64,000 nucleotides of DNA. Source: an uncultured Clostridium sp. Its GTDB lineage: Bacteria > Bacillota > Clostridia > TANB77 > CAG-508. The translations under genes were made by a program, and so were the position numbers. Location: NCBI GenBank assembly GCA_900553405.1, contig USDF01000001.1, forward strand, positions 2,567 to 66,566, in the 5' to 3' direction. Numbering within the stretch: the first letter of the stretch is position 1; each line of letters starts with the position of its first letter. This document shows positions 8,347 to 42,036 of this stretch, piece by piece. Under the pieces are notes generated by a model. The model was not told the DNA's origin. It searched no databases and worked only from the letters and a program-made list of their open reading frames with translations.

Positions 8347-9372
8347 ATGAGTAATATAACAATTGGAAATGAAAAAAATATTTTATTTTATAGTGATGAA
8401 AATGGACAAACCAAAGTAGAAGTAATTCTACAAGATGAAAATGTTTGGTTAAATGTAAATGCAATAGCTACTCTTTTTGATGTACAAAGACCTGCTATTG
8501 TAAAGCATATAAATAATATATACAATGATGAAGAATTAAGTAGGAAATCAACTTGTTCCATTTTGGAACAAGTTCAAGTGGAGGGAACTCGAAGTGTTAA
8601 AAGGCAAAAGGAATATTATAATCTAGATATGATTATTTCTATCGGGTTTAGAGTTAATTCTAAAAAAGCAATTAAATTTAGAACTTGGGCAAATAAGATA
8701 ATTAAAGATTATATGATACAAGGTTTTGCACTTGATGATAATAGATTTATGAAATCAAGAAAATCTGATCAAGAATATTTTAAAAGATTACTTGAAAGAA
8801 TAAAATTAATTCGTACTAGTGAGAGAATGTTTTATCAAAAAATTACAGATATCTTTGCTGAGTGTTCTATTGATTATGATAAAAATAGCGATATAGCAAA
8901 AGATTTTTATGCAACTATTCAAAATAAATTTCACTATGCTATTACTGGGAGTACTGCAGCAGAAATTATTTACAACAGAGTTGATAGTCAAAAAGTGAAT
9001 ATGGGATTAACAAATTGGGATAAATCTCCTGATGGAAAAATCTTAAAATCAGATGTTTCTGTTGCTAAAAATTATTTAGATGAAAAAGAAATAAAAAAAC
9101 TAAATAATTTGGTGAACTTATTTTTAGATATTGCAGAAAATAATGCAGAAAGAAATTTATCAATGAGTATGAATGAATGGAAGAATGAAGTAGAAACATC
9201 TTTAAAATTATTTCATTATGATGTATTGCAAGGCAAAGGAAAAATCTCTGCTGAAAAAGCAAAACAAAAAGCAGAAAATGAATATGAAAAATACAAAATT
9301 ATACAAGATAAAAAATTTGTTTCTGATTTTGATAAATTACTAATTGAAACAGAAAAGATAGAAAAGCATTAG
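8347..9372 (+). CDS. RhuM-family protein (virulence-associated / Fic-DOC-related DNA-binding family)
   Basis: 341 aa. N-terminus (ILFYSDENGQTKVEVILQDENVWLNVNAIATLF) recalled as typical of RhuM-family proteins. Confidence 0.55.
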   Translation: MSNITIGNEKNILFYSDENGQTKVEVILQDENVWLNVNAIATLFDVQRPAIVKHINNIYNDEELSRKSTCSILEQVQVEGTRSVKRQKEYYNLDMIISIGFRVNSKKAIKFRTWANKIIKDYMIQGFALDDNRFMKSRKSDQEYFKRLLERIKLIRTSERMFYQKITDIFAECSIDYDKNSDIAKDFYATIQNKFHYAITGSTAAEIIYNRVDSQKVNMGLTNWDKSPDGKILKSDVSVAKNYLDEKEIKKLNNLVNLFLDIAENNAERNLSMSMNEWKNEVETSLKLFHYDVLQGKGKISAEKAKQKAENEYEKYKIIQDKKFVSDFDKLLIETEKIEKH

Positions 9373-9409: not shown

Positions 9410-11365
9410 ATGTTTAAATTACACTCAGAATATAAGCCAACAGGCGACCAACCACAAGCAATAGAATACTTATCAAAAGGAATAAAAGAAGGCAAGAAGT
9501 TTCAAACATTGCTAGGAGTAACAGGTTCTGGTAAAACTTTTACTATGGCAAATATAATTCAAAATGTACAAAAGCCTACACTTGTTTTAGCACATAATAA
9601 GACTTTAGCAGGACAACTTTATTCGGAGTTTAAAGAGTTCTTCCCAGAGAACAATGTAGAGTATTTTGTTTCATACTATGACTATTACCAACCAGAAGCG
9701 TATATTCCACAATCAGATACTTATATAGAAAAAGACTCCTCTGTAAATGATGAAATAGATAAACTTCGCCATAGTGCTACTGCCTCTCTTTTTGAAACAA
9801 GAGATACAATAATTGTAGCTTCTGTTTCTTGTATATATGGATTAGGAGATCCTATAGATTATGAAAATATGGCTATATCTTTAAGACCGGGTATGCAGAT
9901 AGAAAGAGATAAGGTACTAAAAAAATTAGTTAATATGCAATACACAAGAAATGAATTAGACTTTAAAAGAGGTACTTTTAGAGCTAAAGGTGATATTGTA
10001 GAAATTTATCCATCAGATGAAAGTGAAACAGCAATAAGAGTAGAATTCTGGGGAGATGAAATAGAAAAAATTTCAGAAATAAATCCACTTACAGGAAAAG
10101 TGCAAGCTACAAGAAATCATATTGTTATATTCCCAAATTCACACTATGTTACAACTTCAGATAAAATGGAAAGAGCATTAGATGCCATAGATAAAGAAAA
10201 AGAACAAAGGGTAGAATATTTTAAGTCTATTGGTAAATTAATAGAAGCACAAAGAATAGAAGAAAGAACAAATTTTGATATAGAAATGATGAAAGAAACA
10301 GGTTTTTGCCAAGGAATTGAAAACTATTCAAGACACATAAGTGGAAGAGAGGAAGGTAGTCCTCCATTTACATTATTTGATTATTTTCCCAAAGACTTTT
10401 TACTATTAATAGACGAATCACATGCAACAATACCACAAGTAAGAGCGATGTACAATGGAGATAGAGCAAGAAAAGAATCTTTAGTAAATTACGGTTTTAG
10501 ACTTCCATCAGCTTTTGATAATAGACCTTTAAAATTTGAAGAATTTGAACAACGAATTAATCAATGTATATTTGTTAGCGCAACGCCTGCAGATTACGAA
10601 AAAGAACATTCTAAAGATAATGTTGTAGAACAAATAATACGTCCTACAGGACTTTTAGATCCTAAAATAGAGGTAAAACCTGTAACAAATCAAGTAGATG
10701 ATTTAATAGAACAAATAAGACAAACTACAGAAGCGGGAGACAGAGTATTAGTTACGACTCTTACTAAAAAAATGGCAGAAGACTTATCTAGCTATTTAGC
10801 AGGTATAGGCATAAAAGTAAAATATATGCATTCAGATATAAAAGCATTAGAGAGAATGGAAATAATAAGAGATTTAAGACTTGGAGAGTTTGATGTTTTA
10901 GTTGGTATAAATCTTTTAAGAGAAGGTTTAGATATTCCAGAAGTTTCTTTAGTTGCTATACTAGATGCAGATAAAGAAGGATTTTTACGTTCAGAACGTT
11001 CTTTAATTCAAACTATAGGACGTGCCGCAAGAAATACCAATGGTATGGTAATAATGTATGCAGATGAACTTACAGAAAGTATGGAAAAAGCGATTTCTGA
11101 AACAAATAGAAGAAGAAAAATACAAGAGGAATACAACAAAGAACATGGGATTGTTCCTCAAACAATAAAGAAAAATATTAGAGATACTATTAAAGCTAGC
11201 ATAGTTGAAGAAGCACAGAAAGAATATAGTATAGATAAAGAAGCGGATATACAAGAAGTAATAGATAAATTAACAGATGAAATGCTAAAATATGCTTCAC
11301 AAATGGAATTTGAAAAAGCAGCAGAATTAAGAGATAAAATAAAAGAATTAACAGGTGAAGTTTAA
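9410..11365 (+). CDS. uvrB: excinuclease ABC subunit B
   Basis: 651 aa. Helicase motifs (GVTGSGKT), DExH (LIDESH), C-terminal UVR domain ([11 protein letters not shown]). Confidence 0.95.
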
Positions 11366-17608: not shown

Positions 17609-19015
17609 TTGGAATATAACAACGAGAAACTAGAAGAATTTAATAGATATATAAATGGAAAGAAAGTAGCAATAATAGGAATGGGAGTCAGTAATTTACC
17701 ATTATTAGACTACTTTTATGAAAAAGAAGCAAAAGTAACAGTTTTTGATAACAAAGAACAAGAAGAAATAGATAGCAATATCATAGCAAAATTAAACAGA
17801 TATGGATTTAACTATTTCTTTGGAAAAGACAATTTAGACAATTTGAAGGGATTTGACATTATATTTCGCTCACCAAGTTGTATGCCTTTTACAAAACAAT
17901 TAGCAGAGGAACAAGAAAGAGGAGCAATTATTACCACAGAAATAGAAATGGTATTAAAACTTGCACCATGTAAAACAATTGGTGTAACTGGTACAGAAGG
18001 AAAAACAACTACTACATCAATTATATATGAAATAGTAAAACAAGCAGGCTATAATTGCTTTTTAGGTGGAAACATAGGAAAACCAATATTTACAAAAATT
18101 AAAGATATGAAACCAGAAGATGTTGTTGTATTAGAAATGAGTAGTTTCCAATTAACAGATATGGACGTGAGCCCAGACATTTCTTTAGTTACAAATATTT
18201 ATCCAGATCACTTAAATGTTCATCGTTCATATGAAGAATACCAAGAAGCAAAGAAAAACATATTTAAACATCAAAATGAAAACGGAATATTAGTATTAAA
18301 TTATGATAATGAAATTACACGTTCATTTGCAAAAGAGGCAAACGGAAAAGTAATATTCTTTAGTAGTAAACAAAAACTTGAAGATGGCTATATTTACGAT
18401 AATACAGATGGAATGATAAAACAATGTGAGGACGGAATAAGAAGACATCTAATAAGCAAAAATGAAATAAAATTAAGAGGAATTCATAATTATGAAAATA
18501 TATGTGCAGCATTAGCTGTTACATCAAGTATAGCAGATATTACTTCGCAAATAAAAACAATAAAAGACTTTGCTGGTGTAGAGCATAGACTAGAATTTGT
18601 AAAAGAAATAAATGGAGTTAAATATTACAATGATTCAATAGGAACAAGTCCAGCAAGTACAATTGCAGGGTTAAATGCTTTTGATGAAAATATAATTCTT
18701 TTAGCAGGCGGTTCAGATAAAGGATTAGACTACAAAGAAGTAGGAGAGGCAATAGCAAAAAAAGTAGGAACTTTAATTTTATGTGGTCCTACAAGTGAAA
18801 AAATAGAAATGGCAACAAGAGAGGCACTAAAAGAAACAAATAAAAGTATAGAATTTTGCTATACAAATAATTTAGAAGAGTCTGTAAATGTAGCATATGC
18901 TAAAGCAAAAAAAGGAGATATAGTTTTACTTTCTCCTGCAAGTGCAAGCTTTGACACATTCAAGAACTTTGCAGAACGTGGAAACAAATTTAAAGAATTC
19001 GTAAACAAACTTTAA
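17609..19015 (+). CDS. murD: UDP-N-acetylmuramoyl-L-alanine--D-glutamate ligase
   Basis: 468 aa Mur ligase: GVTGTEGKTTTTS P-loop, Mur ligase C-terminal domain. TTG start with RBS. Confidence 0.85.
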   Translation: MEYNNEKLEEFNRYINGKKVAIIGMGVSNLPLLDYFYEKEAKVTVFDNKEQEEIDSNIIAKLNRYGFNYFFGKDNLDNLKGFDIIFRSPSCMPFTKQLAEEQERGAIITTEIEMVLKLAPCKTIGVTGTEGKTTTTSIIYEIVKQAGYNCFLGGNIGKPIFTKIKDMKPEDVVVLEMSSFQLTDMDVSPDISLVTNIYPDHLNVHRSYEEYQEAKKNIFKHQNENGILVLNYDNEITRSFAKEANGKVIFFSSKQKLEDGYIYDNTDGMIKQCEDGIRRHLISKNEIKLRGIHNYENICAALAVTSSIADITSQIKTIKDFAGVEHRLEFVKEINGVKYYNDSIGTSPASTIAGLNAFDENIILLAGGSDKGLDYKEVGEAIAKKVGTLILCGPTSEKIEMATREALKETNKSIEFCYTNNLEESVNVAYAKAKKGDIVLLSPASASFDTFKNFAERGNKFKEFVNKL

Positions 19016-19885: not shown

Positions 19886-19998
19886 CGCGTGAAGAAGGAC
19901 TTGAACCTTCAACCTTCAGGAAAACAACTTGTGATACCTAGCTAGGATTTTTGAAATATACACAAGTACCTTACGCTCTACCAATTGAGCTACTCACG
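19886..19998 (-). other. aberrant tRNA-like gene (canonical acceptor, D and T arms; ~40-nt insertion in the anticodon region)
   Basis: Minus strand: GCGTGAG-TA-GCTCAATTGGTAGAGC-G-TAAGGT[ACTTGTGTATATTTCAAAAATCCTAGCTAGGTATCACAAGT]TGTTTTCCTGAAGGTTGAAGGTTCAAGTCCTTCTTCACGC. The insert has 7-bp terminal inverted repeats (ACTTGTG/CACAAGT) and an internal palindrome CCTAGCTAGG. Confidence 0.45.
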
Positions 19999-20236
19999 CA
20001 AACCCTTAAATAAAATTGAATTATTTTAATATGTTTATTATTCTAGCATGTTAAAACAAAAAAGTCAACATAATTTTTAAAAAAATTAAAAAATATGCCA
20101 AAAATAGAAAATTTAAATAAAATATTAAATTGAAAACAAAAAAATTAAATAAATCATTATAACTATATAGTAATGAATATAAAATAAAAAAATGAACAAA
20201 ATAGAAATATATAAAATAATGAAAGGTGGTATAAAA

Positions 20237-23000: not shown

Positions 23001-25730
23001 ATGGGACTTTTTAAAACATATAGTGAGAAAGAAGTTAAAAGAATAAGACCAATAGTAGATAAAATTAATGGTTTAGAAGAAGAAATTTCAAAATTAACTG
23101 ACATAGAGTTAAAAGCAAAAACAGAGGAATTTAAAAATAGATATGCAAATGGTGAGTCTTTAGATGATTTATTACCAGAAGCATTTGCAGTTGTTAGAGA
23201 AGCATCAAAAAGAGTATTAGGAATGAGACATTTTGATGTTCAATTAATAGGTGGTGTTGTACTTCATCAAGGTAGAATTGCAGAAATGAAAACTGGTGAA
23301 GGTAAAACATTAGTTGCTACACTTCCAGTATATTTAAATGCACTTACAGGAGAAGGAGTTCATGTTATTACAGTAAACGATTACCTAGCAAAAAGAGATA
23401 GCGAATGGATGGGAAAAGTTTATAGATTTTTAGGATTAACAGTAGGTCTTGTAATATCAGGAATGAACCCAGCACAAAAACAACAAGCATATAATTGTGA
23501 TGTAACTTATGGAACAAATAATGAATTTGGATTTGATTATTTAAGAGACAACATGGTTATTTATAAAAATCAATTAGTTCAAAGAAAATTAAAATATGCA
23601 ATCGTAGACGAAATTGATAGTATTTTAATAGACGAGGCTCGTACACCTCTTATTATTTCAGGTAGAGCTAACAAATCTTCCGATTTATACAAAAAAGCAG
23701 ATAACTTTGTAAAAAGATTAAAAGCAAAAGTAATAGTTGAAGAAGATGTTAAAGATTTAGAACAAGCAGAAGATAACGAAAACTATGACTACATTGTAGA
23801 CTTAAAAGCAAAATCAGCTACACTTACAAGTAAAGGTATTAAAAAAGCTGAAGACGAATTCCATTTAGAGAACTTTAACGATATAGAAAACTCTGAGTTA
23901 GTTCACAATGTAAATCAAGCATTACGTGCTCATGGAATTATGAAAAAAGATATAGACTACATTGTAAAAGATGGCGAAGTTCTTATTGTAGACGAATTTA
24001 CAGGACGTATCATGTATGGAAGAAGATACAATAATGGATTACATCAAGCAATTGAAGCAAAAGAAGGAGTTAAAATTGCAGATGAATCAAAAACTTTAGC
24101 TACAATAACATTCCAAAATTACTTTAGAATGTACGAAAAATTATCTGGTATGACAGGTACAGCTATGACAGAAGAATCTGAATTCCAAGAAATTTATAAT
24201 TTAGACGTAATAGAAATACCAACAAATAAACCAATGATTCGTGATGATCACCATGATGTTATATATAAAAATGAAAATGCTAAATTTAGAGCAGTTATAA
24301 ATGATATAAAAGAAAGTCATGAAAAAGGCCAACCAGTGTTAGTTGGTACAGTATCAATTGAAAAATCTGAAAAATTAAGTAGCTTACTTAAAAAAGAAGG
24401 AATTAAACATGAAGTATTAAATGCTAAATTCCATGAAAAAGAAGCTGAAATTATAGCACAAGCTGGTAAGTTTGGAGCAGTTACAATTGCAACAAACATG
24501 GCAGGACGTGGTACAGATATTATGCTTGGTGGTAATAGTGAATATCTAGCAAAACAAGAAATGAGAAAGTTAGGTTATTCAAGTGAATTAATCGAACAAG
24601 CGACAGCATTTAACGAAACAGATGACAAAGAAATATTAGATGCTAGAAAGAAATTCAAAGAATTAGAAGAAAAACATAACAGTATTATAAAAGAAGAAAA
24701 AGAAAAAGTAATAGATGCAGGTGGACTAAAAATAATTGGTACAGAAAGACATGAATCTAGAAGAATTGACAACCAGTTACGTGGACGTTCTGGACGTCAA
24801 GGAGATAGAGGTGAATCTAGATTTTATATAGGTCTAGATGATGACTTAATGAAAATATTTGGTGGAGATAAAGTAACAGCTGTATACAATTTACTTGGTG
24901 CAGACGAAGATATGCCAATAGAATCAAGAATGATTACTAAATCTGTAGAATCTGCACAAAGAAGAGTAGAAGGTAGAAACTTTAGTATTCGTAAAAATGT
25001 ACTTGCTTATGACGATGTTATGAATGTTCAAAGAGAAATCATATATGCACAAAGAAGACAAGTTCTTGACGGAGAAGATTTAAAAGACAAAATTATAAAA
25101 ATGATGGATTCTGTTGCAGAAGATTTAATATCAGTTTATTTAACTGAAGAAAATGTTAATAAAGAAGCATTAATGGAAGATATTAAATCTACATTTGGAA
25201 TAGAAGAAGTTAAGTCAATAAATAGCAAAAAACTAAATATAAATGAGGTTATTACTGAAGTACAAGACAAAATCCACGAAATATATAGCAAAAAAGAAGA
25301 AGAATTTGGTAGTGAAGAATTAAGAGAATTAGAACGTATAGTAATGCTAAAAATAGTAGACCAAAGATGGATGGATCATATAGATAATATGGATGAACTA
25401 AAAAACGGAATTGGTCTTCAAGGATATGGTCAAAAGGATCCAGTTGTTCAATATAGAATACTTGGTGGAGAAATGTTTGACGAAATGACTGCAAATATTA
25501 AAGTTGATGTTGTAAGATTCTTATTAAATGCTAGAAAAAAAGAAGGCGGAGTATCAAAACGTGAAGAAACTTCTAAAATTACAAATGCTAGTTTAGAAGA
25601 TACAGCAATTAATTTAGTAGATGGTAGTTATAAAAAAGATGAGGGTGGAATGAACAAAACAGTTGTAAATGATGAACCAAAAGTTGGAAGAAATGACCCT
25701 TGTCCATGCCGGTTCAGGAAAAAAATATAA
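23001..25730 (+). CDS. secA: preprotein translocase ATPase SecA; C-terminal zinc-finger tail frameshifted (extra C at ~25710)
   Basis: 909 aa with canonical SecA motifs throughout. The annotated end ...[11 protein letters not shown] becomes the canonical [17 protein letters not shown] if the C at 25710 is removed. Confidence 0.95.
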
Positions 25731-25746
25731 AAACTGCTGTGGTAAA
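25711..25746 (+). repeat. attL core: 36-bp direct repeat (ggttcaggaaaaaaatataaaaactgctgtggtaaa), secA 3' end
   Basis: Identical 36-mer recurs at 32251-32286. Confidence 0.85.
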
Positions 25747-25998
25747 TAACCTCGCAAACCCTTATAAAATAAGGAATTGTTAAAAATAGAAAAAATGATA
25801 AATTTGTTCACAGATGACAATTTGTCCACGATTTGTCCACATAGCATAAATAATGTGGACAGAATCGAAGAAACCCCATAAAAATCAATAAAAAATCTAC
25901 ATGGACAATTATTGTGGACATAGTTATATAAAATGTCAGCATTTGAAATGCTGGCATTTTTCCGTTTCATTAAGTTTTATAATGAAGGAGAGATAACT

Positions 25999-26466
25999 AT
26001 GGTAAGCGTAAGAAAACGTGGAAAGGTATATGAATACCGATTTGAAATTGCAACAGTTGACGGAACAAGAAAATGGATAACAAAGTCAGGGTATCCAACA
26101 AAAGCAGAGGCTTTTAAAGAAGGAGCAAAAGCCTATAACGATTTTTACTACAATGGTCAAAAGACGCAGTTAAGAGAAAATATGTCGTATGCAGATTTTT
26201 TAGATTATTGGATAGATAATTATGCAAGTTTCAATTTGCATTACTCTACTACAATATCTTATATAAACATTATTAAAAATCACGTAAAACCAAGAGTAGG
26301 ATTTTATAAATTATGGCAATTAGATACACGTCTTTTACAGGAGTTTATCAATAAAATATATGTTGAGTATGGCTTTTCAAAAAACTATATGGCGAGTATT
26401 TTAAAAGTGGTTAAAGGTTCATTAAAATATGCGTGTTACACATTAAATTATATTACAAAATTGTAA
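25999..26466 (+). pseudogene. tyrosine recombinase/integrase N-terminal fragment (arm-binding + N-terminal SAM-like domain only)
   Basis: MVSVRKRGKVYEYRFEIATVDGTRKWITKSGYPTKAEAFKEGAKAYNDFY is a Tn916/phage-integrase-like N-terminus. Stops after 155 aa; no catalytic domain follows in any frame. Confidence 0.65.
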
Positions 26467-26467
26467 T

Positions 26468-26504
26468 ATTGAGTAATATTAGAATGACGACTTATATGAT
26501 AAAA
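26468..26504 (+). promoter_or_regulatory. candidate response-regulator box (tandem GTAATATT half-sites) upstream of transglycosylase gene
   Basis: tattacaaaattgtaatattgagtaatattagaatgacgactta; near-identical copy at 29050-29093. Confidence 0.45.
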
Positions 26505-26559
26505 AATGATAATATTACTGCAATAAATTACTTTTTAGTAAAGAAGGGATTAGCATTAT

Positions 26560-27249
26560 ATGAAATTAGTTAAAAAGATTGCAATAACAATTTTATTAAT
26601 ATTTATTTGTATAGGAAGTTATTTTATTTGTAGTGGTTATCAAATGTATAAGAATGCCATAAATAAAATGCCATTAAAGGATAAAATTACAACAATTAGG
26701 CAAAAAGAAGATTATACAAAAATTGATGATATGCCTCAAATATATTTAAAAGCAGTTGTATCAGTTGAAGATCATAGATTTTACAAACATTTTGGGATAG
26801 ATGTCATTTCTATTGGAAGAGCATTTGTAAATGATATAAAAAAAATGAAATTTGTAGAGGGAGGAAGCACAATTACCCAACAACTAGCCAAGAATATCTA
26901 TTTTACACAAGATAAGAAAATAGTAAGGAAAGTTGCAGAAATTTTTATGGCATTTAGCATAGAAAGTAACTACAATAAGGATGAAATATTAGAATTATAT
27001 TTGAATACTTCATATTTTGGCAATGGATTTTATTCTGTTAAGTCAGCAAGTTTAGGTTATTTTAATAAATTACCAAAAGATATGAACGATAGTGAATCAA
27101 TTATGCTAGCAGGAATCCCAAATGCTCCGTCTTTATATAATCCAATTCAAAATAAAAATTTAGCAATTGAAAGACAGAGGCAAGTTATAAATAAAATGAT
27201 TAAATATGGTAACCTAGATAAAGTTGAAGCAGAAAAAATTATAAAATAA
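26560..27249 (+). CDS. monofunctional biosynthetic peptidoglycan transglycosylase (GT51, MtgA-like)
   Basis: N-terminal TM anchor, then GT51 motifs EDHRFYKHFGID, GGSTITQQLAKN, RKVAE...MAF, YLNTSYFG. Confidence 0.85.
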   Translation: MKLVKKIAITILLIFICIGSYFICSGYQMYKNAINKMPLKDKITTIRQKEDYTKIDDMPQIYLKAVVSVEDHRFYKHFGIDVISIGRAFVNDIKKMKFVEGGSTITQQLAKNIYFTQDKKIVRKVAEIFMAFSIESNYNKDEILELYLNTSYFGNGFYSVKSASLGYFNKLPKDMNDSESIMLAGIPNAPSLYNPIQNKNLAIERQRQVINKMIKYGNLDKVEAEKIIK

Positions 27250-27341
27250 TTATATTTAATTTTCTGAATTATTATAATTTAGAAAATTAAAGTGATATAA
27301 TATGAATAATTATAAAAGCAAATTACGAAAGGAGATAAACT

Positions 27342-28004
27342 ATGAAAAAAATATTAATTATAGAAGATGAAAAAATCATAAGAAATGAGTTAAAATCTTT
27401 GTTAGAAAACTCAGGGTATGAAGTATTAATTATAGAAAAGTTTGATAATGTTAAAGAAAATATAAAAAATATGAAATTTGATTTAATTTTAATGGATATT
27501 AATTTACCTAATAAAAATGGTGAAATTTTATTAAAAGAAATTAGAAAAGAATCTAATGTTCCTATTATTATGGTTACGAGCAGAGTAGGAGAAGTAGATG
27601 AAGTTTTATCTATATCTTATGGTGCAGACGATTATATTACTAAGCCATACAATCCAACAATCTTACTATTGAGAATACAAAATATATTTAAACGAATGGA
27701 TAATAATATGGACGACTTATTTTATGATAATATTAGTGTTAATCCACAAAAAGGAATATTGAAACAAGGCGAAAAGGTATTAGAACTGACTAAAAATGAA
27801 ATGATTATCTTTACATATCTTTTAAGTAATCGTGGTAGAATAGTAACTCGTGATGATTTAATGACAGATTTATGGAATAATAATGAATTTATAAATGACA
27901 ACGCTCTAACAGTAAATATTAGTAGATTAAGAAATAAATTACAAAATTTTGGACTTGAAAATAGGATTGAAACAAGAAAAGGACAAGGGTATAAATTATT
28001 ATGA
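27342..28004 (+). CDS. OmpR-family response regulator (BceR-like)
   Basis: Receiver domain (ILIIEDE...LMDINLP) plus winged-helix C-terminus. Confidence 0.85.
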   Translation: MKKILIIEDEKIIRNELKSLLENSGYEVLIIEKFDNVKENIKNMKFDLILMDINLPNKNGEILLKEIRKESNVPIIMVTSRVGEVDEVLSISYGADDYITKPYNPTILLLRIQNIFKRMDNNMDDLFYDNISVNPQKGILKQGEKVLELTKNEMIIFTYLLSNRGRIVTRDDLMTDLWNNNEFINDNALTVNISRLRNKLQNFGLENRIETRKGQGYKLL

Positions 28005-29017
28005 GTTTTAAAAAATATTTATTAGATAAAACAGTACAGATAACTGTGTCAATTGTTGGATTCATAATTGCTATTCTTATGTTAAACGCATTTAAAGTGG
28101 AAAATGATTTAAAAATAGCATTGACAATATTATTTTTTTTAGTTGCAACATTTAATATTATTTTTGATTATTTCAGGAAATACAAATTTTACAAAAAAAT
28201 ATTAAATACGCTTGATAAGTTAGATAAAAAATATTTAATTTTAGAAATGTTAAAGAAGCCAAACTTTTATGATGGCGAAATTTTTTATCAAATTCTTTAT
28301 GATATAAACAAGTCAATGATTGAAAATGTAAAAGAATATAATTTAAGTATTACCGATTTCAAGGAATATGTAGAAATGTGGATTCATGAAGTAAAGATTC
28401 CAGTAGCAAGTTTAACTTTATTAATTCATAATAACAGAAATATGTTTGATAAAAGATATATAGAACAAATTAGAAAGTTAGATAACTATATAGATCAAAT
28501 TTTATATTTCGTTCGAAGCGAAAATGCCGAAAAAGATTATCTTATCAAAGAAAATGAATTGCAGAAGATTATTAAAGATGTTGCTTTAAAAAACAAAGAT
28601 GACTTATTAGAAAATAAAGTTAATCTTGAAGTTGATGTTCATAATGAAAAAGTTTTAACGGATTCAAAATGGTTAGAGTTCGTATTAAATCAGATTATAA
28701 ACAATAGTATTAAATATAAAAAAAATAATAACGATCCAATAATAAAAATTAGTGTAAAAGATGAAAAAGATAAAGTATATCTAACTATTTGGGATAATGG
28801 AATAGGAATACCTAAAAACGATATAAAAAGAGTATTTGATAAATCTTTCACTGGTGAAAACGGTAGAATAATGGCAAAATCAACAGGTATGGGACTTTAT
28901 ATTGTCAAGAAATTATGCGATAAATTAGGACATAAGATAATTATTGAATCTGAAATACATAAATATACAAAAATTACAATTATCTTTTATAAAAATGATT
29001 TTTATAAAATTGATTAA
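28001..29017 (+). CDS. intramembrane-sensing histidine kinase (BceS-like)
   Basis: Two N-terminal TM helices with a minimal loop, a HisKA region (HEVKIPVAS), and HATPase_c (GIGIP...GMGLYIVKKL). Overlaps the RR gene by 4 nt. Confidence 0.8.
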   Translation: MSFKKYLLDKTVQITVSIVGFIIAILMLNAFKVENDLKIALTILFFLVATFNIIFDYFRKYKFYKKILNTLDKLDKKYLILEMLKKPNFYDGEIFYQILYDINKSMIENVKEYNLSITDFKEYVEMWIHEVKIPVASLTLLIHNNRNMFDKRYIEQIRKLDNYIDQILYFVRSENAEKDYLIKENELQKIIKDVALKNKDDLLENKVNLEVDVHNEKVLTDSKWLEFVLNQIINNSIKYKKNNNDPIIKISVKDEKDKVYLTIWDNGIGIPKNDIKRVFDKSFTGENGRIMAKSTGMGLYIVKKLCDKLGHKIIIESEIHKYTKITIIFYKNDFYKID

Positions 29018-29049
29018 AGTTTATGCAGATTTAGATACTAAAAATAAAT

Positions 29050-29093
29050 ATTACAAAATTGTAATATTCTGTAATATTAGAATAACGACTAAT
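29050..29093 (+). promoter_or_regulatory. second copy of candidate response-regulator box upstream of ABC transporter genes
   Basis: tattacaaaattgtaatattctgtaatattagaataacgactaa, 40/44 identical to the 26461-26504 copy. Confidence 0.45.
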
Positions 29094-29135
29094 CCTATCT
29101 TTTATATTACAATGTAATCAGAAAGGAGAAAGATT

Positions 29136-29903
29136 ATGGAAAATATCTTAAAAATTGATAAAATTGAAAAATATTATGGCAATAAATCTAGTCTTACAAA
29201 AGCAATTGATAACCTATCATTTGATGTTGAAAAGGGAGAATTTGTTGCAATAATGGGAGCAAGTGGCTCTGGAAAGACTACTCTTTTAAATTGTATATCT
29301 ACAATTGATAAAGTTACATCTGGACATATTTATGTAGCAGGTAATGATATCACAAAATTAAGAGGAAATAGTCTAAATAAGTTTAGAAGGGAAGAGTTAG
29401 GCTTTATATTTCAAGATTTTAATTTGCTTGATACTTTAACTGCTTATGAAAATATTGCTTTGGCACTTTCTATTCAAAATGTGAATTCAAGAGAAATTGA
29501 TACAAGAATTAAAAAAATTGCAAAAGAACTGGATATTGTTAATGTACTTAATAAATATCCATATCAAATGAGTGGAGGTCAAAAGCAAAGAGTCGCTAGT
29601 GCAAGAGCAATAATTACTAATCCAAAGTTAATTCTTGCAGATGAACCAACAGGTGCATTGGATTCAAAGTCAGCTAAAATGCTTTTAGAAAAATTTGATT
29701 ATTTGAATAAAGAATTACAAGCAACAATTCTTATGGTGACACATGATGCGTTTACTGCAAGTTATTCTTCAAGAGTCATATTTATCAAAGATGGTAAAAT
29801 TTTTAATGAAATAATTAAAGGAACAAATTCTAGAAAAGAATTTTTTGATAAAATAATAGATGTTGTAACATTACTTGGTGGTGACTTAAACGATGCTCTT
29901 TAA
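29136..29903 (+). CDS. ABC transporter ATP-binding protein (BceA-like)
   Basis: Walker A (GASGSGKTT), ABC signature (MSGGQKQRVASARA), Walker B (ILADEPTGALD). Confidence 0.9.
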   Translation: MENILKIDKIEKYYGNKSSLTKAIDNLSFDVEKGEFVAIMGASGSGKTTLLNCISTIDKVTSGHIYVAGNDITKLRGNSLNKFRREELGFIFQDFNLLDTLTAYENIALALSIQNVNSREIDTRIKKIAKELDIVNVLNKYPYQMSGGQKQRVASARAIITNPKLILADEPTGALDSKSAKMLLEKFDYLNKELQATILMVTHDAFTASYSSRVIFIKDGKIFNEIIKGTNSRKEFFDKIIDVVTLLGGDLNDAL

Positions 29904-31938
29904 GTTATCATTAAAAAATATTAGTAAGAGTATAAAGGATTATGCCATCTATTTCTTTACTCTGATACTAGGTGTTGCAATTTTTTATGTGTTCAATGCA
30001 ATAGATGATCAGTCAGTTATGATGAAGGTATCATCAACAACAGCAGAAATAATAAAACTTATGACCAATGTTCTTTCTGGTGTTAGCGTGTTTGTATCTA
30101 TAATATTAGCGTTTTTAATTGTTTATGCAAGTAGATTCTTAATAAAAAGAAGAAATAAAGAATTTGGAGTTTATTTAACGCTTGGAATGAGCAAAAAGAA
30201 AATATCCTTAATATTATTTATTGAAACATTAATAATAGGTATAGTTTCATTGGTAGTTGGTTTAGGAATAGGTTTTTTATTATCACAATTGATGAGTATT
30301 TTGGTTGCTAATATGTTTGAAGCAGATTTAACTAGATTTCAATTCGTATTTTCACCAAATGCTTGTATTAAAACTTTGATTTATTTTAGTATTATGTATT
30401 TTGTAGTTATGATATTTAATACTATAAATATTAGTAAATGTAAATTGATAGATTTAATGCATTCTAACAAAAAATCTGAAAAAATAAAATTAAAAAATCC
30501 ATTGTTTTGTACAATAGTGTTTATTATTTCTTGTATAGCATTAGGATTTGCTTATTATCAGGTTACTGGTGGTATTGAGAAAATGACTTATGCAAATAGT
30601 ATTTTTGTTCCTATAGGAATAGGTGCTGTTTCAACTTTCTTTGTGTTTTGGTCTTTATCGGGATTGCTTTTAAAAATATTTATAAGTATGAAGAACACTT
30701 ATTATAAAGGGTTAAATAGTTTCACCCTTAGACAGTTTTCAAGTAAAATAAATACTATGACTTTTTCGATGACAATAATATGTTTGATGTTATTTATAAC
30801 GATTTGCGTGTTATCGAGTGCAATGTCTATGAAAATATCTATGACAAATAATTTGAAAAAACTGGCTCCAGCAGATGTTCAAATTGGTAAGTTTATAAAT
30901 GTAACTAATTATGAGTATTATTCTGAAAAACAAATAGAAGATTCAAAAATCTCAATATATGATACACTTGAAAATTTAGGCTATGATGTAGATAACAAAC
31001 TTAAAGATATAGTAAAACTTGATGTTTATAACTTTGATAATATTGACTTAAAAACCAGTATTGGCTCTTACTATGATATTGCAAAGGATGAATATCCTTT
31101 AATGCCATACAATAAGAAGGAAAGTATTGTAAAGATAAGTGATTACAACAAAATTGCAAAATTGTTTGGACTAAAAGAATATACATTAAATGATGATGAA
31201 TATTTTATTGTTGCTAATTATTCAGAATATGTAGAATTCAGGAATGAGGGACTTAAGGTAGATACAATACTTAATATAAATGAAAAGAAATTAAAACCAA
31301 AATATGATAGTTGTGTAGAAGGTTTTATTGCAATGAATTCAACATATTCAAATCTGGGAATTTTTGTTGTTCCTGATAATGCAGTAAATGATTCAATGAA
31401 AAAATATGAATATTTAACTGCTAATTATAATGTTACAGATATAAATGAGAAAAATCTTTCGGAAAAAGAGTTAAGTGAAATTTGCAAAGAAAATTCTAAT
31501 AATACTGTTATTGATTTTGATTCTAAAATGACAATTAAAGAAAATAGTATTGGACTAGGTGCAATGGTTACCTTTATAGGATTATACTTAGGTATTATAT
31601 TCTTAATTTCTTGTGCTGCAATTCTAGCACTTAAAGAATTATCGGAATCAAGTGATAATGTAGAAAAGTTTAATATGCTAAGAAAAATAGGCGTAGATGA
31701 AAAAATGATTAATAAAGCATTGTTTAGACAAATTGGTATATTTTTTATGTTTCCGTTATTAGTTGCAATTATACATTCTATATTTGGAATTAAATTTTGT
31801 AATTATTTGTTAAGTGCCTTTGGAGCCGCTAATTTAGTATCATCAATAATTGGTGTTGCAATATTTATTGTTGCGATTTATGGAGGATACTTCTTAGTAA
31901 CTTATATTTGCAGTAAAAATATAATTAAGGAAAAATAA
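29893..31938 (+). CDS. ABC transporter permease, FtsX family with large extracellular domain (BceB-like, 10 TM)
   Basis: 681 aa. Two FtsX-type 4-TM modules separated by a ~230-aa extracellular domain. Overlaps the ATPase gene. Confidence 0.85.
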   Translation: MLFKLSLKNISKSIKDYAIYFFTLILGVAIFYVFNAIDDQSVMMKVSSTTAEIIKLMTNVLSGVSVFVSIILAFLIVYASRFLIKRRNKEFGVYLTLGMSKKKISLILFIETLIIGIVSLVVGLGIGFLLSQLMSILVANMFEADLTRFQFVFSPNACIKTLIYFSIMYFVVMIFNTINISKCKLIDLMHSNKKSEKIKLKNPLFCTIVFIISCIALGFAYYQVTGGIEKMTYANSIFVPIGIGAVSTFFVFWSLSGLLLKIFISMKNTYYKGLNSFTLRQFSSKINTMTFSMTIICLMLFITICVLSSAMSMKISMTNNLKKLAPADVQIGKFINVTNYEYYSEKQIEDSKISIYDTLENLGYDVDNKLKDIVKLDVYNFDNIDLKTSIGSYYDIAKDEYPLMPYNKKESIVKISDYNKIAKLFGLKEYTLNDDEYFIVANYSEYVEFRNEGLKVDTILNINEKKLKPKYDSCVEGFIAMNSTYSNLGIFVVPDNAVNDSMKKYEYLTANYNVTDINEKNLSEKELSEICKENSNNTVIDFDSKMTIKENSIGLGAMVTFIGLYLGIIFLISCAAILALKELSESSDNVEKFNMLRKIGVDEKMINKALFRQIGIFFMFPLLVAIIHSIFGIKFCNYLLSAFGAANLVSSIIGVAIFIVAIYGGYFLVTYICSKNIIKEK

Positions 31939-32250
31939 TATATCTGATAAAACGATATCTCAGTAGTTTAACTAATCTTAATATATAGTATATAATTATG
32001 AACAGAAAAAAACACAAATGTATGATTTTCCAATTCGCACAATTTATTGAACTTTGAAATATGGTATAATGATGGCAGTGAACGGATGTGGACGGTGTCC
32101 ACAATTTGTCCACAGTAGAGAAATATTTATAATATAAATAGTACAGATAATACAAATAATATAGATGTTACCTAGTCTGGAAAAGCCTGAAATACAGGTA
32201 ATATTATAAATACAAATAATACAGATAATATGGGAGTACAAAGTTCTTGT

Positions 32251-32286
32251 GGTTCAGGAAAAAAATATAAAAACTGCTGTGGTAAA
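32251..32286 (+). repeat. attR core: second copy of the 36-bp secA 3'-end repeat; continues into native secA tail (...[16 protein letters not shown])
   Basis: Identical to 25711-25746. Downstream sequence encodes the native SecA CCGK terminus and stop at 32296. Confidence 0.85.
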
Positions 32287-32382
32287 AATCAGTAATATCA
32301 ACCTATCTTGTAACAAAAAAAGATACTTAAAGCAACAGAAAATAAAGATTAAGATAGTTAAATTTTATCTAAAAAGGAAGGA

Positions 32383-32411
32383 AACCAGAGATTGTTAATC
32401 TCTGGTTTTTT
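32383..32411 (+). terminator. rho-independent terminator (native secA terminator)
   Basis: aaccagagattgttaatctctggtt + TTTTT. Confidence 0.85.
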
Positions 32412-38052: not shown

Positions 38053-38658
38053 TTAGTTTAATAAATTTGCAATTAAGTCAATTACTGTGTTAGTCATTAC
38101 CGTATAGTCTAGTTCACTGTGTTTATGATATACAATTTCATGGCATAAGTCATCAATCAAATTAATTGCAATGTGAACTTTTTCATACAAGTTAGCTGTA
38201 TCAAATCCACTATTTGCTAGTATATTATAAAGTGTTTTTGTCATATACATTTCATGTTCTTGAAAGAAACTAGCTATTTCTTTATCTGAATGAACCATAG
38301 CTGTAATTTCTTCGTGAGCTGATTGTGAAAGTTTATGATTTTCTACAAATTTATCTATCATTTCTTTTAATATTTCTTTTATATTAGCTTTAGAAACAGT
38401 TTTGCCCTCAGTTATAGTAAGCATAGGGTAGAAAATATCACCTGCGTATCTTTTAATTCCTTCAAGTAATATATCATGTTTATCATTAAAATATTGATAC
38501 ACAATACCAGTAGAAACACCAGCAGCTTTTGCTATTTGTGCTGTGTTTGTATTGTAGTATCCTTTATTACATATAAGCTCAAAACCAGCTTCTATAATTT
38601 TTTCTTTTTTCTCAATAGAACGTTTTTGTATAGGTTCTCTAATATCGTTAGATGTCAT
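38053..38658 (-). CDS. TetR/AcrR family transcriptional regulator
   Basis: N-terminal HTH (YYNTNTAQIAKAAGVSTGIVYQYF). Divergent from the ABC transporter genes. Confidence 0.85.
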   Translation of the reverse strand: MTSNDIREPIQKRSIEKKEKIIEAGFELICNKGYYNTNTAQIAKAAGVSTGIVYQYFNDKHDILLEGIKRYAGDIFYPMLTITEGKTVSKANIKEILKEMIDKFVENHKLSQSAHEEITAMVHSDKEIASFFQEHEMYMTKTLYNILANSGFDTANLYEKVHIAINLIDDLCHEIVYHKHSELDYTVMTNTVIDLIANLLN

Positions 38659-38908
38659 GTTATCAGTCCCTTCTTTAAAAATGATATAGCTAAATTATAA
38701 GTATTAAGCAATATCAGTATATTTAATATACATTAAAAAAGTATGTATAAAACTAAGTTCTCTAAAATTAAATTAACTATATTATAAAGGCAACAAAATA
38801 AAAAGTCAAGAAATATGAAAAATATTTCATATTCTATTGACTTTTGAAATAATAATATTTATAATGTCTAACAGAATATGAAATAAATTTCAAGTTAAGG
38901 AGGAGACT

Positions 38909-39619
38909 ATGGAGAAAATAGTTGAAATAAAAAATGTAAGTAAAATTTACAAAACAGGAGAAAAAGAATTTAAAGCACTAGATAACATTGATTTATCTAT
39001 AAACAAAGGAGAATTTGTTGTAATACTTGGACCATCAGGAGCAGGAAAATCAACATTATTAAATTTAATAGGTGGAATGGATACACCAACAAATGGAAGC
39101 ATAAAAATTGATGGAGAAGATATCTCAAAATATAATGAGAACAAATTGAGCGAGTATAGAGCAGAGAATATCGGATTTATCTTTCAATTTTACAACATAT
39201 TGCCAACACTTACTGTATTGGAAAATGTTGAATTAATTAAAGATGTTGTAAAAAACGGAAACGATAGCAAAGAAGCTATAAAAGCTGTTGGATTAGAAAA
39301 TCACATGAATAAATTTCCAAACCAATTATCTGGAGGTGAACAACAAAGAGTTTCTATAGCAAGAGCTATAGCTAAAAATCCAAAATTACTATTATGCGAT
39401 GAACCAACAGGTGCACTAGATTCAAAAACAGGTGTCGAGGTTTTAAAACTATTACGCAAACAATGTGATGGAAACAATGGAGCAAATACAGTAATTATAG
39501 TAACTCACAATAGCTTATTTGCAGATATTGCAGACACAGTAATAAGAGTAAAAAACGGAAAAATAGAAAGTGTAACTGCAAATGAAAATCCTAAAAAGAT
39601 TGACGAGGTGAAATGGTAA
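38909..39619 (+). CDS. ABC transporter ATP-binding protein (MacB/YknY-like)
   Basis: Walker A GPSGAGKST, signature LSGGEQQRVSIARA, Walker B LLLCDEPTGALD. Confidence 0.9.
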   Translation: MEKIVEIKNVSKIYKTGEKEFKALDNIDLSINKGEFVVILGPSGAGKSTLLNLIGGMDTPTNGSIKIDGEDISKYNENKLSEYRAENIGFIFQFYNILPTLTVLENVELIKDVVKNGNDSKEAIKAVGLENHMNKFPNQLSGGEQQRVSIARAIAKNPKLLLCDEPTGALDSKTGVEVLKLLRKQCDGNNGANTVIIVTHNSLFADIADTVIRVKNGKIESVTANENPKKIDEVKW

Positions 39620-42036
39620 TGGCTAAATTAAACAAAAAAATATTAAGAGATATAAAACAAAACAAAATGCAATTTTTTAATGTTTTTATTATGATATTTT
39701 TAGGAGTATTTGTTTTTGCAGGAGTACATTCATATATGGATGGTATGCAAATAAGTGGCGATAATTACTATGAATCAAACAATTTACAAGACTTATGGCT
39801 AACAGGTGAAAACTTTAATAAAGAAGATTTAGACAAAGTAAAAAATATCGAAAATGTTAAAAACGCAGAAAGATTATTAAGCATAAGAACAGACTTAGAA
39901 AATGAAAAAGAAAAAGACGTACAACTAGAAACAATCTTTATTGAATCAAATGAAATATCAAAAATGTACATTGCAGATGGAGAAGAATTTTCTAAAGAAA
40001 AAGATGGTGTATGGTTTGATAGCTATTTAGCAAAATATTTAGACCTAAAAGTTGGAGATGAAATTACTTTTAAATATAAAGACTACACAATGACAGAAAA
40101 AATAAGAGGTCTAGTAAACACACCAGACCATGTGTATTTTGTAAAAGATGAAACAGCAATTTTCCCAACACATAAGGATTATGGTTACATATATCTTTCT
40201 ATAAATGAATTTCCAAAACAATATATTTATGATGAGATAAAAAATAAAATTGTGGCAGAAAATACTATAATGGAAAACATGAAAGATAGCATAACAAATG
40301 AAACAATAGAAAAAATGATTCCAGACTTTAACATAGAAGACTATTATATATTTAATCAAGTAATTGTAGATGTAGATGATACAAGCAAAATAGAAGAAAC
40401 AAAAAGAAATATAGAAAATGATATTAAAGCTGCAATAGCAGTTACAGATAGAGAAGCAAGCGCATCTTGCGAAACATATAATTCAGAAATAGAAGAGGGA
40501 GCAACATATTCAGAAGTATTTACATTTTTATTCTTATTTATAGCAATATTATCTGTTGTAACAACAATGAACAGATTTGTAAAAAAACAAAGAACACAAA
40601 TAGGAACATTAAAAGCATTAGGATTTAAAAATAGCAAAATAATAAGACACTATGTAGGCTATGGATTTTATATAAGTATAGCAGCTTCAATACTTGCACT
40701 ATTAGTTGGAAACTTTGGATTAGGCAAATTCTTCATGAACATGGAAATGTCATATTTTGAAGTTCCAGTTTATAGTACAATATTATTACCTACAGTATAT
40801 ATACTTGCAGTATTTGTAGTAATAATAGTAACTATTGCAACATATTTCTCTTGCAGAAAAATCTTAAAAGAACCAGCAGTAGAAGCATTAAGAATAGAAA
40901 TACCAAAAGTAAAGAAAACAAATTTTGACTTAACAACAAAAGGAATATTCAAAAAAGCCTCAATTTCTACAAGATGGAATTTAAGAGATATAGGAAGAAA
41001 TAAAGGAAGAAGCATAATGGGTATAGTAGGAATAATAGGCTGTACAATGCTTTTAGTATGTGCATTTGGCTTACTAGACACAATGAATTCTTACTTAGAC
41101 TGGCAATTTGACAAAATAAATAATTTCGAATACAAACTAGGATTATCAAGTAATTATACTGATGAAGAGCTAGAAGATGCAAAAAACAAATACGGAAATG
41201 CTACAAGTCAAACTCTAGCAATAGAAGTAAAAAATGGAGATAAAAAAGAAACAAATACTTTAACAATAAATGACGCAAAAGATTATTTAAAATATACAGA
41301 CCATAACAAAAACTATATAGACTTAAAAGATGATGGAATATATATTACAGAAAAATTATCAGAAAAATACGACTTAAAAGTTGGAGACGAAATATCTTGG
41401 CATGCATTTGGAAACAATAATTGGTATACATGTAAAATAGTAGGAATAAATCGTGACCCACAAAATCAAAATTTAAATATGACTAGAAAATATTATGAGT
41501 CTTTAGGACTTGAATATAAAGCAGATTCGTTATATACTAATTATGACTTAAGTGACACAAAAACAATCGCAGGAGTAGAAACAATACAAAGCATTTCAAA
41601 CCTAAGAGAAGGTATAGAAAGCATGTTAGAAACTACAAAAACAATGGTTGTAATATTAATAGTAGTGTCAGTAATTTTAGCATATGTAATTATTTACAAT
41701 TTAGGAATACTATCATTTGCAGAAAAACAATATCAATTTGCAACATTAAAAGTATTAGGATTTAAAGATAAGCAAATAAAGAAAATATTTGTAAAACAAA
41801 ATATATGGCTTTCTATAGTAGGTATTCTAGCAGGATTACCACTAGGATATACAATGATAGACTATATATTTAAAGCAGCACTTGGAGAAAACTATGACTT
41901 TCCAGCAATGATAAGTGTACCTTCATATTTGTATGCAGCAATAGGAAGCTTTGTAGTAGCACTACTTGTAAATAAAACACTATCTAGAAAAGTTAAAACA
42001 ATTGATATGGTAAGTAGTTTAAAAGGAAACGAATAA
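39619..42036 (+). CDS. ABC transporter permease, FtsX/MacB-type with two 4-TM modules and large extracellular domains
   Basis: ~805 aa, duplicated FtsX architecture. The ORF-track start at 39613 overlaps the upstream stop, so ATG 39619 is also possible. Confidence 0.8.
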   Translation: MAKLNKKILRDIKQNKMQFFNVFIMIFLGVFVFAGVHSYMDGMQISGDNYYESNNLQDLWLTGENFNKEDLDKVKNIENVKNAERLLSIRTDLENEKEKDVQLETIFIESNEISKMYIADGEEFSKEKDGVWFDSYLAKYLDLKVGDEITFKYKDYTMTEKIRGLVNTPDHVYFVKDETAIFPTHKDYGYIYLSINEFPKQYIYDEIKNKIVAENTIMENMKDSITNETIEKMIPDFNIEDYYIFNQVIVDVDDTSKIEETKRNIENDIKAAIAVTDREASASCETYNSEIEEGATYSEVFTFLFLFIAILSVVTTMNRFVKKQRTQIGTLKALGFKNSKIIRHYVGYGFYISIAASILALLVGNFGLGKFFMNMEMSYFEVPVYSTILLPTVYILAVFVVIIVTIATYFSCRKILKEPAVEALRIEIPKVKKTNFDLTTKGIFKKASISTRWNLRDIGRNKGRSIMGIVGIIGCTMLLVCAFGLLDTMNSYLDWQFDKINNFEYKLGLSSNYTDEELEDAKNKYGNATSQTLAIEVKNGDKKETNTLTINDAKDYLKYTDHNKNYIDLKDDGIYITEKLSEKYDLKVGDEISWHAFGNNNWYTCKIVGINRDPQNQNLNMTRKYYESLGLEYKADSLYTNYDLSDTKTIAGVETIQSISNLREGIESMLETTKTMVVILIVVSVILAYVIIYNLGILSFAEKQYQFATLKVLGFKDKQIKKIFVKQNIWLSIVGILAGLPLGYTMIDYIFKAALGENYDFPAMISVPSYLYAAIGSFVVALLVNKTLSRKVKTIDMVSSLKGNE

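Follow-up and report, generated by a model that had tools for sequence, protein, structure and literature searches.

Firmicutes sense and resist peptide antibiotics chiefly through Bce modules, whose mode of protection is still debated. They are defined by a permease with a large extracellular domain between transmembrane helices (TMs) 7 and 8, and by a kinase that has two TMs and no sensor domain (PMC11009047). In the current view, transporters of the BceAB type release lipid II-cycle intermediates from bound peptide and communicate this activity to the kinase (PMC11009047). In Bacillus subtilis, BceRS controls induction of the BceAB transporter in a circuit that is largely insulated (PMC11009047); the BceR-type binding consensus has been quoted as TNACA-N4-TGTAA (PMC9020739). 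Here we describe a segment at positions 25711-32286 of a 64-kb stretch of DNA from an uncultured Clostridium sp. (hereafter the window). By its flanking repeats and gene content, the segment is an islet in the 3' end of secA that carries a Bce-type module together with a monofunctional GT51 peptidoglycan glycosyltransferase (MGT). Coordinates are positions in the 64-kb window, and L-numbers denote comparison contigs or loci from assembly, genome and metagenome collections.

The cassette in the window resembles BceRS-BceAB and PsdRS-AB of B. subtilis in having four components with a 10-TM permease, a sensor-less two-TM kinase, an OmpR-type response regulator (RR) and TNACA-N4-TGTAA before the transporter. 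Unlike these systems, it has a second copy of the putative inducible promoter before the GT51 gene, spreads horizontally, and occurs with swappable alleles of the extracellular domain. In Staphylococcus aureus, VraTSR induces mgt/sgtB, pbp2 and murZ under cell-wall stress (PMC3032642; PMC9380581). By analogy, the VraTSR stimulon is the nearest precedent for induction of an MGT, because in both cases an envelope-stress two-component system would raise a monofunctional glycosyltransferase under lipid II-cycle inhibitors; however, VraTSR is a LiaRS-like three-component system with no coupled ABC transporter as sensor, and its regulon is chromosomal. S. aureus GraXRS-VraFG is of the Bce type and has a regulon extended to dlt and mprF (PMC11009047). 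This provides a precedent for a Bce-associated regulator that controls envelope effectors beyond the transporter, although these effectors alter surface charge, include no peptidoglycan polymerase and are encoded outside the cassette.

Among mobile elements, cis-mobilisable elements (CIMEs) and integrative mobilisable elements (IMEs), as in the streptococcal family of integrative and conjugative elements and IMEs, retain attachment (att) sites without a working integrase and undergo tandem accretion. The islet in the window is similar in that att and arm sites are kept in the absence of a working integrase, arrays are formed, and autonomous relatives use the same site. It differs in its target, the secA 3' end, in that no relaxase or oriT was identified, and in that mobilisation is read from its distribution.

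The islet is bounded by two copies of the 36-mer GGTTCAGGAAAAAAATATAAAAACTGCTGTGGTAAA, the attL core at 25711-25746 (plus strand) and the attR core at 32251-32286 (plus strand). Both are secA tail coding sequence, they have no mismatches, and they are the only copies in 64 kb; in shuffled sequence no match to the 36-mer is expected, even when up to three mismatches are allowed. The earlier note had described perfect direct repeats of the secA 3' coding sequence around this segment, and these are confirmed. Inside the cores lie two arms. The left arm (25747..25998, plus strand) contains a stop codon supplied by the element, the sequence TAACCTCGCAAACCCTTATAAAATAAGG, arm-type sites and a hairpin at 25937-25953. 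Its sites are TGTCCAC at 25823 and 25834 and GTGGACA at 25855 and 25914, with one-mismatch copies at 25805 and 25901. The right arm (31958..32250, plus strand) contains TGTCCAC at 32096 and 32107, the one-mismatch copy GTGGACG at 32088, A/T-rich ACAGATAATA repeats and a secA-like pseudo-tail starting with ATGGGAGTACAAAGTTCTTGT. Six of the eight TGTCCAC/GTGGACA sites in the window sit in the element ends (2.3 expected), in keeping with the clusters of arm-type repeats that had been proposed for both ends. The left arm is kept in L003, L007, L018, L020 and L073, and the right arm in the first four of these.

Just right of attR lies the displaced end of the secA tail (32287..32408, plus strand), which consists of the codons AAT CAG TAA (NQ*, to 32295) and a terminator hairpin at 32382-32408, as the earlier note had placed them. 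The same ...GKNQ* tail terminates secA in 21 metagenome loci. The right end of the islet and the displaced tail together form a 21-codon open reading frame (ORF) at 32231-32295, whose start, ATGGGAGTACAAAGTTC, is kept in L003, L007 and L020 and which lies downstream of a promoter-like TTGAAC...TATAAT at about 32049-32073. This ORF is probably merely extended attP/attB homology.

The secA gene of the window (23001..25730, plus strand) encodes 909 residues and, as seen in its ORF and translation, ends in CPCRFRKKI* in place of the zinc-finger tail; a Pfam scan finds the SecA domains and no SEC-C. An extra C at 25710, directly left of the attL repeat, shifts the frame to a stop at 25730, and the attL copy of the tail is therefore not translated as a zinc-finger motif. 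The relatives at the same position, in L007, L073 and the 21 metagenome loci, are all in frame. An identical 909-residue SecA occurs in one second assembly, possibly from the same sample. The extra C may be genuine, arising for instance where a conversion tract between the two repeats ended, or it may have been introduced in assembly.

The segment 25717-32285 recurs with 98.1-98.7% identity in L003, L018 and L020, in each case between different flanks. The secA genes of L003 and L018 have 69.6% nucleotide identity, and L018 SecA is 41-60% identical to window SecA at the amino acid level. Target repeats, arm sites and the presence of the same core-bounded element in unrelated genomes make the case for insertion, and identify 25711-32286 as a horizontally spread islet that integrated site-specifically into the secA 3' end. 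It is hardly credible that the repeats are instead a product of assembly chimerism or of local secA-tail duplication. Both host/arm junctions recur in independent contigs (L001 and L002), and the same arm-cassette-arm structure is found in other samples, in the 377-kb contig L003 and the 175-kb contig L018. What might speak for chimerism is that another assembly of the same organism breaks inside the cassette, L001 ending at 26496 and L002 starting at 31750; these breaks indicate that the cassette is multi-copy and present in several genomes of the source metagenome.

The integrase gene of the islet is a stump. It encodes 155 residues (25999..26466, plus strand) that comprise the arm-binding part and the SAM-like core-binding part only, and Pfam detects Phage_int_SAM_3 alone, with PF00589 absent. 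The stump matches residues 1-151 of the intact 422-residue integrase of L053 with 56% identity, and is identical to the L073 integrase at 151 of 152 residues over the shared part. The L073 gene runs on across a single frameshift to about 425 residues and includes the R, K, HxxR, H and Y of the catalytic site. L073 is a contig rich in indels, in which secA is split six ways. As the R-K-H-R-H-Y catalytic domain of tyrosine integrases is missing, the window gene is by its domain content a remnant and not a functional member of the family. The loss of the catalytic domain had been claimed by the earlier note. The cognate integrase of L073 lies at the same site in a related host.

A 12-nt microhomology, ATTAAATTATAT, forms the joint between the integrase and the sequence upstream of the cassette (26442..26453). 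In a three-way alignment of the window, the integrase gene of L038 and the cassette flank of L004/L007, the match switches at ATTAAATTATAT, so that the stump was made by deletion or illegitimate recombination at the microhomology. The integrase relative at 10001-11130 of L038 is itself a pseudogene with an in-frame TAA and a later frameshift, and that at 17274-18125 of L007 is a pseudogene with other stops.

Several candidate views of the integrase were dropped. The idea that no full-length integrase exists came from a word-indexed protein search, which returned hits of at most 260 residues; loci from a DNA scan gave integrases of 422-434 residues. We also rejected programmed frameshifting at the integrase gene's poly-A tract, as the defects differ, being nonsense in L038 and at other positions in L007. 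Members of the stump cluster and the 155-residue representative of the stump added little, and the 46-residue "members" are unrelated. A 48-residue ORF left of the cassette in L004-type loci, considered as an integrase remnant, is not one.

The truncation junction between integrase and cassette is common to the window, L003, L018 and L020. Its presence in hosts whose secA genes are less than 70% identical indicates that the truncated islet spread after loss of the integrase, which argues for mobilisation in trans, presumably by related integrases. The earlier note considered the element probably fixed, which fits poorly as a status of the whole family, because three loci whose secA genes are about 60-70% identical contain this truncated element with about 98% identity; the window copy itself may be immobile or inert. 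A fixed islet that was shared among hosts by transfer of larger segments and by homologous recombination in the secA tail or neighbouring islets is rather doubtful. It would agree with the finding of no intact, uninterrupted cognate integrase, with the homology that tandem arrays supply for recombination, and with two point differences in the arm sites of the window copy relative to L003/L007, one of which is shared by L073. However, the shared segment stops exactly at the att cores in hosts with secA less than 70% identical, the arm sites are otherwise strictly conserved, and the cognate integrase of L073 is full length but for one frameshift, in a contig riddled with indels that extend to secA.

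The secA 3' end had been called uncommon as a target of attachment. Within this clade, by contrast, it is a hot spot, with tandem arrays and many integrases and arm repeats. L018 has five secA-tail cores in tandem, at its positions 6015, 7065, 9171, 15716 and 17918, corresponding to at least four islets. Tandem small islets that each end in a secA-tail core are seen in L018 (6015-17932), L003 and L059 (821-3512), and most of them have no integrase. L007 and L073 share the synteny of the window (cmk, murD-like, CBS, AI-2E, DUF1980 and secA genes) at about 83% identity. At the secA site, L007 contains the cassette joined differently, with further islets, and L073 contains a ParA/ParB/adhesin cargo behind the full-length integrase.

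A scan for uninterrupted secA tails ending in KNQ* yielded the 21 metagenome loci, with secA at 72-78% nucleotide identity, and after the tail these mostly have arm repeats, integrases or a second core. Full-length integrases of 422-434 residues directly follow secA in six loci (L043, L045, L047, L053, L055 and L060). The L053 integrase consists of Arm-DNA-bind_4, SAM_3 and Phage_integrase domains, and its neighbours include an HTH_36 gene; other secA-site loci carry AAA_25/DnaB_C or KilA-N genes. The tandem arm repeats in the first 150 nt past the secA stop differ among L042-L062, and include TTGTTTGC, TGTTCGCA, TTGTCAAC, TTGTTGCC, TTGTCGCC, TTGTCCAC and TTTGACA. No paper on the secA end as an integration site was found in a literature collection that is incomplete.

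Nested in the islet is a 5.5-kb cassette of five genes, for the MGT, the RR, a histidine kinase (HK), an ATPase and a permease. In all other contexts, similarity in blastn starts sharply at 26425 and stops sharply at 31957. The right limit coincides with the joint of a 278-bp deletion (31957..31958) relative to L020 and all other cassette contexts. Lost with the 278 bp (6398-6674 of L020) were the terminator of the permease gene and a minus-strand gene for a conserved 79-residue helix-turn-helix protein, which accompanies the cassette in every other context. Since L020 retains the 278 bp, the islets of the window, L003 and L018 are deletion derivatives. The cassette has a different location in L004-L006 and L008-L012, upstream of a YlqF/RbgA-like GTPase gene. 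In L005, it is within a segment flanked by 65-nt repeats of the 5' end of the GTPase gene (9099-9163 and 17799-17863 of that contig), which are 85% identical; a TnpB/IS605 OrfB gene joined the element in L005. To judge from these flanks, the cassette uses at least two integration sites, the secA 3' end and the 5' end of the GTPase gene.

The cassette is widespread. In the assembly collection, 4141 indexed blocks contain the exact MGT protein, and MGTs 97-100% identical to it are present in about 20 GTDB species representatives, all of which are uncultured human-gut metagenome-assembled genomes, labelled Bacilli bacterium, uncultured Tenericutes, Clostridium sp. CAG:594, Coprobacillus sp. CAG:605 and similar. 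Across more than 20 uncultured gut species the five-gene cassette is 91-99% identical, apart from the swapped extracellular domain of the permease, and the MGT gene is the most conserved of the five (97-100%). Searches for the islet or its promoter in plasmid, phage and IMG/VR collections gave no match. Two cassette alleles, compared across the window, L004, L005, L007 and L013, have 97-100% nucleotide identity except at window positions 30774-31957, where the extracellular domain of the permease is 48-63% and TM8-10 is 71-79% identical. This pattern resembles an exchange, by recombination, of the domain presumed to set specificity. Between L026 and the window, HK and permease are 55 and 58% identical and MGT and RR 98 and 94%; the joint divergence of the former two fits kinase-transporter co-evolution, which has been described for Bce modules (PMC11009047).

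The RR, HK, ATPase and permease genes are contiguous at 27342-31938, all on the plus strand. The OmpR-family RR (27342..28004) has 220 residues with Pfam Response_reg and Trans_reg_C domains. The intramembrane-sensing HK (28001..29017) has 338 residues and, by hydropathy, two TMs (residues 12-30 and 37-55) separated by a loop of about six residues, with no sensor domain. Its best PDB match is BceS (7e-28; the next is 4.5e-14), and its best NCBIfam match is SapS, below the cutoff of that family. The BceA-like ABC ATPase (29136..29903) has 255 residues, a Pfam ABC_tran domain, and Walker A, signature and Walker B motifs in its translation. The BceB-like permease (29893..31938) has 681 residues and a Pfam FtsX domain; hydropathy places seven TMs, an extracellular domain of about 254 residues (308-561) and three TMs, and the PDB matches are limited to PsdB (2e-30) and BceB (9e-30).

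This permease architecture, the sensor-less two-TM HK, the encoding of both in one locus with an OmpR-type RR, and the BceR-type box described below are those of the Bce family, and by these features the four genes are a complete and genuine Bce-type module that would confer peptide-antibiotic resistance. The gene content listed in the earlier note, from the integrase fragment and GT51 MGT to the 10-TM FtsX permease, is thus borne out by Pfam and hydropathy, as is the BceRS/BceAB-type identity by BceS and BceB/PsdB being the best or only PDB matches.

The MGT (26560..27249, plus strand) has 229 residues, of which 43-213 are covered by Pfam Transgly (2.5e-61), and a single N-terminal TM at residues 7-25 according to hydropathy. 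Its PDB matches are GT51 domains and MGTs. The motifs EDxxF, GGSTITQQ, RKxxE and ELYLN are visible, and EDHRF, GGSTITQQ, RKVAE and ELYLN of the window protein align to the glycosyltransferase domain of Aquifex PBP1a. The protein therefore combines the GT51 motifs with a single membrane anchor and no transpeptidase domain. It falls short of the NCBIfam equivalog cutoffs of named MGTs and penicillin-binding proteins (PBPs), and for this reason no orthologue is assigned.

The link between the MGT and the Bce module lies in their promoters. A BceR-type box, TTACAAAATTGTAA, occurs at 26453..26466, 93 nt upstream of the MGT start, and again at 29051..29064, where it precedes the ATPase start by 71 nt. 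Both boxes are palindromes, and nowhere else in the 64 kb is there a strict match to TNACA-N4-TGTAA. Each box is part of a promoter repeat, and the two repeats (26450-26495 and 29048-29093) form a 46-nt direct repeat with 91% identity. In L030 (MGT 75% identical), L063 (72%) and L026, the MGT gene and the ATPase gene are each still preceded by a perfect box amid diverged surroundings. MGT homologues with 50-69% identity and no Bce genes nearby (L065, L071, L067 and L033) have a strict box 76-122 nt upstream. This is the sole box in the 12-15 kb locus of L065, L067 and L033, and L071 has a second one at its position 11209; a downstream GTAAT element, as in the transporter promoters, is present in L065 and L071 as well. 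Other gene orders are found in L070, in which the MGT gene follows a Bce-type RR-HK-ABC-permease operon, and in L069, in which it is co-operonic with a different set of ABC transporter and two-component genes across a 28-nt gap.

As the box persists in diverged modules and before stand-alone homologues, the MGT-Bce link is not merely a recent duplication, and the MGT is probably a member of the Bce regulon. Comparative footprinting of this kind strongly suggests co-regulation of MGT and transporter. The suggestion of such a link in the earlier note is strengthened by the shared box and promoter. Its view of an unusual combination holds for the literature, in that no paper linking BceAB with a monofunctional transglycosylase was found in our incomplete literature collection and the review of Bce modules mentions no transglycosylase (PMC11009047); it does not hold for nature, in which the linkage is not rare and recurs in diverged modules and other gene orders.

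These promoter data bear on what the MGT is for. If the MGT were a passenger, that is, a captured housekeeping-type transglycosylase whose box is a by-product of recent promoter duplication, the near-identity of the 46-nt promoters could reflect a recent neutral duplicate, and the homologues without a box in L031 and L034 would be expected; MGTs are also non-essential in S. aureus (PMC9380581). We regard this as very unlikely, as the box is retained in L030 and L063 despite the diverged flanking promoter, stand-alone homologues have it as the sole box of the locus except in L071, the MGT gene is linked to Bce or ABC-two-component operons in three gene orders, and no gene of the cassette is more conserved.

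Alternatively, the MGT would be Bce-regulated and serve either as a bypass of inhibited or starved glycosyltransferases (moenomycin-type inhibition; class A PBPs) or as a lipid II-binding accessory of the transporter or kinase. Additional protein components and enlarged regulons are common among Bce modules (PMC11009047), the stress regulon of S. aureus raises mgt together with pbp2, which has been read as boosting synthesis, and the MGT is membrane-anchored like the transporter. No sequence feature separates these roles from the one favoured here. The intact catalytic motifs argue against a purely structural accessory, and stand-alone boxed MGTs argue against an obligatory partnership with one transporter. 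Taken together, bypass or accessory roles are unlikely, less so than a passenger.

The explanation that we consider likely combines a non-autonomous secA islet, a Bce cassette joined to it upon truncation, and an MGT that is co-induced for resistance. The islet would belong to a family of tyrosine-integrase elements that use the secA 3' end in uncultured low-GC gut Bacilli. Deletion or recombination at the microhomology would have cut the integrase to its N-terminal 152 residues and fused it to the five-gene cassette. Under attack by antibiotics on lipid II-cycle intermediates, the BceAB-like transporter would recognise complexes of peptide and lipid II-cycle intermediate, signal to the intramembrane-sensing HK, and free the lipid target. 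The phosphorylated OmpR-type RR would bind the TTACAAAATTGTAA boxes before the transporter genes and before the MGT gene, and the co-induced MGT might consume the released lipid II, thereby shortening its exposure or restoring polymerisation capacity. Binding of the RR, induction, MGT activity and the resistance benefit are steps that we infer from comparison with characterised systems, and a role of the MGT in resistance is our hypothesis. More broadly, and tentatively, since we find it conceivable and somewhat short of probable, the clade of about 230-residue MGTs in gut Firmicutes would be a BceR-controlled effector that outruns the antibiotic for lipid II, in a cassette that travels on islets moved in trans by diverse integrases with the secA 3' end as their target.

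Several observations weigh against this explanation. As to the islet, no empty secA site came to light: the 21 loci with uninterrupted tails all belong to other species, and in most of them element sequences come after the tail. Most of the close relatives of the cognate integrase are broken, and the L073 copy has its one frameshift. With the window probably metagenome-derived and the cassette multi-copy in that sample, the allele placed between the arms may be a choice made in assembly. As to regulation, the distant MGT homologues of L031 and L034 and the MGT of L069 have no nearby box, and a promoter scan is uninformative in such AT-rich DNA (62 matches, 57 expected). Furthermore, an extra glycosyltransferase would have no obvious benefit against a binder of undecaprenyl pyrophosphate such as bacitracin.

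Two further features of the window lie outside the islet. A tRNA-like gene at 19886-19999 (minus strand) scores 47.7 bits with the Rfam tRNA model and has canonical acceptor, D and T arms. It contains a 48-nt hairpin-like insert in the anticodon region, encodes no CCA, and is not called by ARAGORN. At 38053-42036, a second ABC ATPase (236 residues) and an FtsX/MacB-type permease (807 residues) are encoded beside a divergent TetR gene; these are unrelated to the islet.

A peptidoglycan polymerase that is packaged and co-regulated with a Bce module would extend the target-protection model, and raises the question of whether freed lipid II must be used quickly for resistance. If the proposed role is true, target consumption would be a resistance principle that has not been described for Bce systems, and the compact cassette would be among the more widely exchanged genes of uncultured small-genome gut Bacilli. 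The series of secA-site integrases with differing arm repeats offers a natural system for the evolution of arm-site specificity and for the mobilisation of defective islets. The near-identical cassette in more than 20 uncultured gut species, with interchangeable alleles of the extracellular domain, is relevant to the gut resistome, and its alleles may bear on competition by lantibiotics or on host defensins.

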